DNA from: a virus
Taxonomy: Duplodnaviria; Heunggongvirae; Uroviricota; Caudoviricetes
Virus record (IMG/VR): IMGVR_UViG_2582580752_000019
Strand: one strand, 5' to 3'
Length of the DNA: 49,396 bases
This document shows positions 21,001-24,000 of the stretch, piece after piece. The number at the start of each line of letters is the position of its first letter. The stretch's first letter is position 1. Made by a program: the position numbers.

Positions 21001-24000
21001 GGAAAGGGCTGATGACTCGCCGCGAGATTGAGCGTGAAGTCTGTTTGTGGGGGCAACAATGAGCAGGGTAACCGTTATTATCTCCGCTCTGGTTATCTGC
21101 ATTATCGCCTGCCTGTCATGGGCTGTTAATCATTACCGCGATAACGCCATTACCTACAAAGCGCAACGCGATAAAAAAGCCAGTGAGCTGAAGCTGGCGA
21201 ACGTGACAATTACTGATATGCAGGTACGCCAGCGTGATGTCGCTGCACTTGATGCCAGATACTCGAGGGAATTAGCCGATGCGAGAGCTGAAAATGAAAC
21301 TCTGCGTGCTGATGTTGCCGCTGGTCGTAAGCGCCTGCGCATCAACGCCAACTGTCCAGGCTCCTTGCGTAAAGCCCCCATCACCTCCGGCGTGGGTAAT
21401 GCAACCGGTCCCCGACTGGCAGAAGCCGCTGAACGGGATTATTTCATCCTCAGAGAACGGCTGATGGCAATGCAGAAGCAACTGGAAGGAGCACAGGAAT
21501 ATATCCGTACCCAGTGTATACCGTGATGTTTTGTTATGAATATGTTACTGGTAACGTTAAGGTAATTTAACAAAGAGTCAGTTCCGGACTTTATAGTGTG
21601 CTCAGTTCATGGCCAAAAACGATTTCTGTGATAAATATTTTGAATATTATTTACAGGTAAATGGAGTGGGGCGCATGGATAGAAATATTACAATAGAGTA
21701 TGAAGTATATGCCCGTATTGTATGGGCAGAGAAGGCAAAAACACGGTAATTCCGTGTGTTGCCATGATACCTGATTGGCAGAATAGTTGTTTGGTTTTGA
21801 GTATATAGTCAGCGTTTTTTGTTCAGTAATTGCCCCCTCAAAAAATAATAAAATAAGGTGATTATTTTTGTTTATTATTTAGTTTTTTTTGTGTGTTGTT
21901 TTATTGTTTTTGCGTGGTTTGTTTTTTATTGTTATTTCATTAAGGGAAGGTAAATTCAGGATGGCAGTCTGTAGATAATCGGAGGTCACTTATGCTACAT
22001 GATCACGTGGCAGAATGTCTGGAGAAAAAAGGACTGTACCGGAGAGCAGCTGAACGATGGGCAAAAGTGATGGTACAGCTAAGTGATGACCAGAAAAGAA
22101 AAGTGGCGGCACAGAAACGAGCAGAGTGTTTGCGTAAGGCGCGCCGGACTCCGGTTTCACCGGTGAACCTGACCGAAATAAAACAAGCGGTCAACAGACT
22201 ACATTCTGAGTTGGGAATGGGATTTGAAGAGCGGCGGGTATTCCGACGATATAAAGGGACAGGAGAACAGAATACGTCCGGAAACGCGCGGTCAAAAAAA
22301 TGCTAAAAAATATCTGAGAGAGTTATTGCCTGTTACCATAAGAAAAAGCGACTTTAGTGGTCGCTTTTTGTGTCATATATAAGTCGTTTAAGTAAACCTG
22401 TCTGAACAGGTGCTCTGGTCGTGTTTGTCTTTGTTGGGTACAAATTGAGAATATTTTTCATTAATTAATCTTCTTCTGCAGGCTTCAATAACCCACGCTG
22501 AAAAATTACCTGAACCTTTCTGGTCAAGAGCGATGTTAATTTGTTCAATCATCTGGTTTGGAAATCGGATGTTGCGGGTTGTTGTTCTGCGGGGCCGGTT
22601 TTTCGATGACATTTTCTTTCCTCTGGTGACAAGCTATATGGCGAGGATTTTACATGGCTGTGCTTCGTACGTTACCGGGCAGAATCAAAACTCTGAACAC
22701 CCGGCGGGTGAATATTCTGAAGGGTGAACAGCGTCGTGTCAGTGGCAGTGCACGTGTTTCCCTCAAGCGTCATATCTGGCTCAGGGATGCCGGGCAGTGC
22801 TGTCTCTGTGGTCGTGTGGTTGACCTCTGTGACAGTGAACTCGATCACCGAATTGCACTTCAGTTCGGTGGTGGTAATGAGGAGACGAATCTCTGGACGC
22901 TCTGTACCGAATGCCATCGACAAAAGTCTGCTCGTGAAGCGGCGGGTGGTATGCCGGACCCGACGCTGCCGGAGGTGTCCGGAGGTCATGGCAGGGCAGA
23001 CGATATCATCGGACTGTGACCCGCCCCGGGGGGGGGGGGGGATCATCCGGCGAAAAAAACGATCGCCCCGGACACCGCCCCCCCTCTCACGCAGAGAAAA
23101 AATTCCCGTTTCAGGGCAGTTAACATGTTAACTGGCTGTCCGGGCATTTTTGCGGTTTTTATCTTTATTATTCAGTTTGTTGTGCGGAAAAAATGTTAAC
23201 TGGCTTTTTCAGCAAATGTTAACCAGGCAGCAGTTAACATTTGCGGCATGAGACGCCGGGAAAAATGGGCTGAACCATACCCGGCTGAGTGCGTTCTGGA
23301 CCCGGGAGGAGGCTGTGCTGACAACGCAAAAACGAAAATTTGCGCTGGCGCTCATGTCCGGGAAAAACAAAACAGCGTCAGCCATTGCCGCTGGTTATTC
23401 GGCGAAGACCGCCAGGGTTAAAGGCTCGCAGCTGGCAAAAGATCCGGAGGTGCTTGCGTTTATAGCCCGTAAACAATGCGAGACGGTGGAGGTGGATGAG
23501 GTTCCTGTTTACCGGCAGAAAAAATCAGAGCAGGAGGATAAACCCCGTCGCCGTGAGGCGGCTGCAATACCACAGCCGGATGAAAAAAATCCGGAGATGC
23601 CTCCGCCCGCGGTGATATCTCATGGTATTGAATATATGGAGGATGGTCTTCCCGATCCGGTGAAAGCTATGGGGCAGATCCTGGTGGAAAACCTGATAAT
23701 TGACCCGAAACTGGCACTGGATGCGGCCTGGCGACTGGCGCAGTTCACACACCATAAAAAAGGCGATGCCGGTAAAAAATCGGCAAAAGGTGATGCCGCG
23801 AAAAAAGCGGCTAACCGTTTTGCGGTGCCACCACCTCCCCGACTGGTGGTGAATAACCAGAATGAGGAAAGCGGATGATACCTGTATGGAGCACGGCATG
23901 TCCGGACTGGGCAGAGCGCCTGAAAAAGGGGCTGTCGATTATTCCGGCTCCGATTTATCCGGACCAGGCTGCACATGCACTGGCGATTTTTAAACAACTG

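Follow-up and report, generated by a model that had tools for sequence, protein, structure and literature searches.

The 49,396-nucleotide DNA analysed here (IMG/VR record IMGVR_UViG_2582580752_000019, hereafter the window) contains, between an HNH endonuclease gene and the small-terminase gene terS, an interval (23028-23244) that is very probably the cohesive-end (cos) site of a lambdoid Stx prophage, served by a terminase of the HK97/D3 type (small subunit TerS, large subunit TerL and an HNH protein). A sequence-only reading had proposed a probable cos site here, citing a run of 14 G (23028-23041), A7 and C7 runs, a palindrome at 23117-23134 and at least three further copies of the half-site ATGTTAAC. 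The runs are read directly in the window, the palindrome consists of 9+9 nucleotides (nt) that are 100% complementary with no gap, the further copies of ATGTTAAC lie at 23193 (+), 23216 (+) and 23233 (-), and the two flanking genes are as that reading had them (Pfam HNH and Pfam Terminase_2). The proposal itself is upheld, mapped virion ends of relatives sharing the core sequence of the site. The cut, which had not been placed, is now located to the C7 run, and neither to the G14 tract nor to the palindrome.

We place the cut at positions 23076-23085, CGCCCCCCCT, because the ends of the phages Lys8385Vzw, fEg-Aba01 and D3 map to the same core. The virion DNA of the Stx1 phage Lys8385Vzw was assigned by PhageTerm to the cos type, with 3' cohesive ends of sequence CGCCCCCCCT (PMC7946995), and its record (MT225100) ends with ...GGACACCGCCCCCCCT and starts with CTCACGCAGAG (in a longer read, CTCACGCAGAGAAAAAATTCCC), the break falling exactly at the cohesive sequence. 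Compared by eye, this phage equals the window from the cut to terS, and upstream of the cut the two differ only by G7 against G14 and by one base. The Acinetobacter phage fEg-Aba01 has the core GGACACCGCCCCCC in common with the window; PhageTerm gives it 10-nt 3' cohesive ends, CGCCCCCCAT, which are also annotated, and a heat/cool restriction-gel test confirms that its ends are cohesive. The sequence of Pseudomonas phage D3 ends with ...GGACACCGCGCCCCCA, its overhang following GGACACC; the D3 cos is cited as the 9-nt GCGCCCCCA. The core is conserved as GAC(A)C in the E. coli, Salmonella, Acinetobacter, Burkholderia-like, HK97 and D3 cos regions. By homology to the mapped phages, the cohesive end of the window would be 23076-23085, a 10-nt 3' overhang containing the C7 run (23078-23084), which starts 34 bp past the end of the G14 run and finishes 31 bp before the palindrome. 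The nicks are predicted after 23085 on the top strand and opposite 23075/23076 on the bottom strand.

The cut is flanked by two conserved elements, both read, like the overhang, on the plus strand. Immediately 5' of the overhang stands GGACAC (23070-23075), conserved in cross-group comparison, and on its other side a box containing an A/T tract plus CCC, CTCACGCAGAG-AAAAAA-TTCCCG (23086-23108), the pattern of which, C[TC]CACG..CAGA-(A6 or T6-7)-CCC, is kept in all groups of the alignment. The cohesive end itself is polymorphic among E. coli-type IMG/VR loci, where CGCGCCCCCT (n=53), CGCCCCCCGT (n=33), CGCCCCCCCT (n=12) and rarer 9-nt forms occur. The ends of the Burkholderia phage vB_PR2a record were considered as a cos marker and rejected: the start of that record is arbitrary and lies inside the conserved box.

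Fixed ends are found in the relatives Lys8385Vzw (the identical 10-mer), fEg-Aba01 and D3, as is proper to an HK97/D3-type cos, and a pac type, with headful packaging and permuted ends, was dropped because close relatives have fixed cohesive ends (by PhageTerm and, for fEg-Aba01, also by gel). The gene context points the same way, the interval lying between HNH and terS-terL and TerL being homologous to HK97 gp2. The HNH gene (22654-23019, plus strand; Pfam HNH, E 7e-7; phrog_589), encoding a candidate accessory nuclease of packaging, is directly upstream of cos, its counterpart is annotated as an HNH endonuclease in relatives, and it is placed beside cos and terS as are HK97 gp74 and D3 orf96. 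On the other side, terS (23315-23878, plus strand; Pfam PF03592, E 1.7e-8; phrog_641) has a GTG start after GGAGGAGG and is followed by terL (23875-25221, plus strand), in whose product Pfam TerL_ATPase and TerL_nuclease (PF03354/PF20441) are matched; the intact TerL of a relative (553 residues) is 23% identical to HK97 gp2 over about 490 residues (E 2e-12). This homology, which spans the full length of the protein, is what would be expected of a cos of the HK97 type, cut to a 3' overhang with the help of HNH; the HK97 cos has a 10-nt 3' overhang, and its cleavage is stimulated by the HNH protein gp74.

The comparison with HK97 and D3 can be carried into the site itself. HK97 and the window have in common the gene order HNH, cos, terS, terL, a G run (G9 in HK97) followed by ATCA, an A/T tract plus CCCG in the first 25 bp or so past the cut, and, in HK97, TAAC in and beside the TerS site. 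HK97 differs from the window in its overhang sequence, CGCCGCCAAA, in the family of its TerS (phrog_5601 against phrog_641), in an HNH protein of marginal similarity, and in the start of terS, which lies 50 nt after the cut against 230 nt in the window. In D3 the core reads GGACACCGCGCCCCC(A) where the window has GGACACCGCCCCCCC(T), and many E. coli relatives of the window carry exactly CGCGCCCCCT; HNH immediately precedes the site, terS and terL immediately follow it, and about 25-30 nt before the core stands a G-rich block with TCAAAA after it. Unlike the window, D3 has an interrupted G block (GGGGTGGGGCGGG) and a reported overhang of 9 nt and not 10, and its terS starts 36 nt after the cut, with no GTTAAC visible in the first 80 nt. 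Plasmids bearing the D3 cos are reported to be transduced. As a cos site, the interval is thus an ordinary member of the long-known HK97/D3 class, and its novelty is low.

Phage lambda offers a more distant parallel of layout: an upstream element a few helical turns away from the nick, followed by the nick site and, after it, by repeated sites for the small terminase, which in the window are candidates. In the lambda cos, about 190 bp separate the nick from the small-terminase gene, a distance comparable to the approximately 230 bp of the window. However, lambda has a 12-nt 5' overhang, a gpA-type terminase and the host protein IHF, while the window has an HK97-type terminase plus HNH and, judging from its relatives, a 10-nt 3' overhang. 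A lambda-type cos was rejected on these grounds (3' 10-nt ends in relatives, TerL of PF03354/PF20441), and no IHF site as in lambda cosB was found, WATCAANNNNTTR having no match with at most one mismatch in 23020-23314.

The cos region belongs to a very common family. Its DNA is 95-98% identical to that of the Stx1a/Stx2 phages BP-4795, 2851, 1717 and YYZ-2008 (long-tailed, genus Pankowvirus), and among 5,426 complete E. coli genomes 1,247 contain a 371-bp region, with at most 8 copies in any one genome. At 99.7% identity, E. coli 2013C-3264 is the closest of the complete genomes; it has G13 and carries an intact terL. Relatives were gathered in three ways, by a 20-nt core (58 IMG/VR loci), by TerL alignment (80 loci) and by flank patterns; a scan of genome contigs with the 20-nt core gave no match, and IMG/VR was used for relatives. 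The 16-nt pattern GGGGGATCATCCGGCG was rejected, about a dozen of its matches being chance matches in unrelated DNA, and the distribution of run lengths was recomputed with the downstream core required, to drop chance pattern matches. An ungapped column profile anchored at the G run was blurred by shifts of 1-3 nt, and a MAFFT alignment was used instead. The labels Salmonella-type, Acinetobacter-type and high-GC Burkholderia-like were given by G+C content and by similarity to phage records.

Upstream of the cut lies the G14 run. It is by far the longest homopolymer of the window (the next longest is 8, and the C7 is the sole C7), in which runs of at least 10 G are expected 0.18 times. The run probably functions as an upstream component of cos, because it is fixed in register among relatives of 60-99% TerL identity and is present in HK97 and D3. 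A run of at least 5 G was found in this register in 60 of the 66 TerL-related loci with sufficient upstream DNA, about 28-31 nt before the core GAC(A)CCGC in all groups, the run being interrupted in some. In the window the corresponding spacer (23042-23069, plus strand), which holds the A7 run (23053-23059) and two GATC, is likewise conserved in length, although outside the enterobacterial relatives, and between groups, its sequence is unconserved. Counted over a 500-nt region, 33 of 36 non-redundant clusters have the run, the background on that strand being 0.16 per 500 nt. In HK97, 32 nt separate the end of the G9 run from the final 10 nt of the genome; the run is G8-G11 in close relatives of HK97, more distant relatives show either G5-G8 or G-rich blocks with interruptions, and D3 has GGGGTGGGGCGGG at the position of the run. 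A full-text literature search for a G tract in cos sites returned nothing relevant, which does not prove novelty, and among the accessible literature the HK97 packaging papers make no mention of a G run.

These data bear on whether the run could be functionless, a neutral slippage-prone remnant or the scar of a module junction. Such a view would accommodate the drift of its length from 5 to 14, the unrelatedness between groups of the sequence upstream, by which the run would mark a mosaic boundary, and the insertion of an IS110-family element that is tolerated inside the run of the PPompW prophages. We nevertheless consider it improbable: the same register is kept from HK97 and D3 to the Acinetobacter and Burkholderia types while the 28-31-nt spacer has fully diverged, 33 clusters of 36 have the run where about 0.16 would be expected, and the prophages that bear the insertion lack lysis genes and HNH and are probably defective. 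In these prophages, ISEc20 sits inside the cos G run (L001 1546-3004, LC567822.1), with G runs on both sides. Locus L340 has the same tRNA...CCTTTC|GGGGGATCATCC junction without the insertion sequence, and in these prophages, where lysis genes and HNH are missing, the module boundary coincides exactly with the G run.

The length of the run is a separate matter. That it would vary had been predicted from the window and is borne out by the relatives: in 103 distinct E. coli-type cos contexts it ranges from G5 to G13 with a mode of 7-8 (G5, 1; G6, 2; G7, 44; G8, 31; G9, 15; G10, 7; G11, 2; G13, 1). None of them has G14, and the window carries the longest allele among those compared. We infer that the tract is a length-variable element and G14 an expanded allele of a normally G7-G9 element. 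A sequencing or assembly error that lengthened a tract of, for example, G8-G13 is a rather unlikely alternative, yet one to be taken seriously. Long homopolymers are error-prone on most sequencing platforms, G14 tops 104 alleles of which the rest are G5-G13 (mode 7-8), and the closest complete genome has one G fewer (G13). Against an error, the lengths form a continuous series (7, 8, 9, 10, 11, 13), G13 is found in two independent assemblies (L020 and E. coli 2013C-3264), and the window shows no other homopolymer anomaly; the tract being intergenic, and so free of frame constraint, offers no argument either way. The length of G14 may be wrong by one G or so.

Homopolymeric G tracts serve as contingency switches in other bacteria, and the tract considered here is polymorphic in length, so that phase variation of a neighbouring gene comes to mind. 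We regard it as scarcely credible. The tract falls between genes, 8 nt separating it from the HNH stop upstream and 273 nt from terS downstream, and has no coding frame; no promoter-like site spans it, nor is it between promoter hexamers; and it is kept in phages of hosts with very different G+C content. It thus lies neither in a reading frame nor in a promoter spacing, as a contingency locus would. Folding of the RNA of the region is not significant either (z = -1.4), and a hairpin between the G and C runs was rejected on the same value and on that of a high-GC relative which has no C run in the overhang region and also folds no better than shuffles (z = -0.9). Between the G run and the cut there are two GATC (Dam) sites, 23041-23044 and 23061-23064, of which the first uses the last G of the run, as does a GATC in HK97 (GGGGATCAAATC). 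Regulation by Dam was considered and dropped, a GATC beside the G run being absent from Salmonella-type and other relatives.

If the G run is a working part of cos, as we favour, its position suggests how it may act. Lying about three helical turns, 34-48 bp, upstream of the cut, with its 3' edge 34 bp before the bottom-strand nick, it would be a conserved subsite placed as cosQ is in lambda, where that element lies upstream of the nick and has a genetic link to the portal (reference cited in PMC10359639). In the HK97 termination complex the nuclease ring adjoins the portal and about 25 bp of DNA occupy the TerL tunnel. By this geometry the G run, 34-48 bp before the cut, would be in the portal channel when cleavage takes place. 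Only the 3' edge of the run would need to be in register with the cut, so that slippage expanding the 5' side (from G5 to G14) would be tolerated; the observed drift in length fits a register held by the 3' edge only. It is possible, and we advance it tentatively, that the run is an essential cos subsite common to the whole HK97/D3 terminase class, read by the motor through TerL and the portal channel at termination, as cosQ may be. A parallel may exist with herpesvirus pac1, in which G-rich runs border a T-rich element and cleavage takes place a set distance away (PMC13595911). Here too, a G run with an A/T-rich stretch after it keeps a constant spacing of about three helical turns to the cut, and the terminases are of the same superfamily; however, the terminase subunits differ, and the window has a single G run with no G-quadruplex potential shown. 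We treat the similarity as a mere resemblance that could serve as a lead only.

Downstream of the cut, the sequence is marked by repeated sites. ATGTTAAC occurs 5 times in the window, against 1.34 expected, and all five copies fall within the 122 bp of 23119-23240. Two of them lie within the perfect 18-bp palindrome CAGTTAACATGTTAACTG (23117-23134), found by an inverted-repeat search, which reads CAGTTAAC-AT-GTTAACTG, a double GTTAAC and candidate TerS site. A spacer rich in T tracts (23135-23190, plus strand), which could possibly bend intrinsically, separates it from half-site 2, AAATGTTAACTGG (23191-23203, plus strand), located by motif and repeat searches. Half-sites 3 and 4 form an inverted repeat (23212-23244), GCAAATGTTAAC - 9 nt - GTTAACATTTGC, with 12-nt arms (23212-23223 and 23233-23244) that are 100% complementary. 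In 22 non-redundant loci, GTTAA/TTAAC is enriched 8.5-fold around cos (3.05 per 280 nt against a background of 0.36). Of 125 contexts matched by pattern, about a dozen of them by chance, 104 contain the exact palindrome.

The placement of these sites differs among relatives. In the Salmonella type, a double site GT(A/T)AAC-(A/G)T-GTTAAC is centred on the terS start codon (ATG/GTG). The high-GC relatives have the form GTTAATGGCTTTAAC, in which TTA is used as a Leu codon, and this argues for selection on a DNA motif rather than on protein at the start of terS in these sequences, because TTA is otherwise nearly absent from the TerL of the high-GC phages (0-1 of about 55 Leu codons). The Acinetobacter-type phages have two or three direct AAGTTAAAG repeats in place of the double site. 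In the window the double site is the palindrome, and the start of terS (GTGCTGACA) lies about 190 bp downstream with three half-sites between. The E. coli type looks as if about 190 bp had been inserted between terS and its ancestral start, because the same ATG/GTG is the terS start in Salmonella-type relatives. The central ATG of the palindrome opens a 24-codon open reading frame, MLTGCPGIFAVFIFIIQFVVRKKC (23125-23199), with its stop inside half-site 2.

Binding of the small terminase to the post-cut box and the GTTAAC sites is plausible and is our best reading of these elements. The conserved A6-TT-CCCG box of the window, at +12..+23 from the cut, is at the same position as the TerS binding site of HK97, the minimal form of which (+15..+29) reads CTAACCCGATTTTTT and includes TAAC and an A/T tract (PMC11331095). 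Residues 10-53 of the window TerS are weakly similar to the DNA-binding domain (helix-turn-helix) of the SF6 small terminase. The repeats might instead serve as operators, controlling terS or late genes through a host protein or a transcription factor, which seems to us quite improbable. Palindromic and inverted sites are typical of dimeric regulators, in many relatives the double site overlaps both the start codon of terS and its ribosome-binding region, and a ribbon-helix-helix-like DUF3950 gene and a PerC-like gene are nearby. Yet the motif tracks the TerS/TerL type in E. coli, Salmonella, Acinetobacter-type and Burkholderia-like loci with differing upstream sequence, there is no promoter signal above chance here, and the experimentally defined TerS site of HK97 also has TAAC. 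Promoter and terminator scans of the region gave chance-level results only, and an Rfam search of it at a permissive threshold gave chance-level matches only and no family.

Taking TerS binding as the favoured role of the downstream sites, the following working scheme may be proposed. TerS, as a ring oligomer with peripheral helix-turn-helix domains, would recognise the DNA just downstream of the cut, its target being the A-tract/CCC box (+9..+23) and the GTTAAC sites (+32..+155), and would recruit TerL there. The terminase would cut concatemeric DNA at CGCCCCCCCT with a 10-nt stagger, the HNH protein assisting nicking, and leave 3' cohesive ends, so that the chromosome would have its left end on the terS side and its right end on the HNH/G-run side. 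At the end of a packaging round, TerS bound downstream would stall the incoming motor, thereby placing the cut site at the nuclease ring of TerL.

Several points weigh against the assignment or against parts of it. The mapped ends belong to relatives and not to the window prophage, the TerL of which is deleted, and a terL-deleted copy would be packageable only in trans. The family of the window TerS differs from that of HK97 gp1 (phrog_641 against phrog_5601), and its proposed binding comes from sequence comparison. In the scanned region of the HK97 clade, an uninterrupted run of 5 or more G was found in only 14 of 38 non-redundant loci, some of the others carrying interrupted G-rich blocks instead, and the cosQ-like role of the run is one that we purely infer. 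Finally, the GTTAAC-type sites of locus L093 are upstream of its G run, which does not suit a simple downstream cosB; in that locus (IMGVR_UViG_2846902752_000007, TerL 78% identical) four GTTAAC/GTTAAT sites lie at about 2200-2440, at the end of the HNH gene and directly before the G run.

Just upstream of HNH lie a PerC-like transcriptional activator gene (21992-22306, plus strand; Pfam PerC, E 4e-44) and a YlcI/YnfO (DUF3950) gene on the minus strand (22388-22612). Downstream of terL is a fusion of prohead protease and major capsid protein (25285-27222), followed by two abutting open reading frames of 454 and 353 residues (27434-28798 and 28795-29856); where the window has this pair, a single frameshifted portal gene is annotated in E. 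coli 2013C-3264 (L233 1-267).

The terL gene of the window has suffered an in-frame deletion. By BLASTP against the 553-residue TerL of a relative, residues 1-136 align with 1-136 and residues 121-448 with 226-553, so that about 105 residues, 136-240 of the relatives, are missing between short ARD(V/M)R repeats. The TerL_ATPase profile is matched only over its positions 5-71 of 178, the deletion taking out most of the ATPase domain, and the prophage should therefore be unable to package itself. It could nonetheless be packaged in trans by related prophages, which are commonly co-resident in one genome, because its cos reads as that of a packaging phage save for the length of the G run and one base.

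The cos site of a very common E. coli prophage family is now placed to the base. Of wider interest is the G run, which is kept in register from HK97 and D3 to distant relatives. The polymorphism of the cohesive end could restrict which co-resident prophages anneal to each other or are cut like each other, and a cos site that is kept, and usable by co-resident relatives, in a prophage with a deleted terL bears on the mobilisation of defective Stx prophages.

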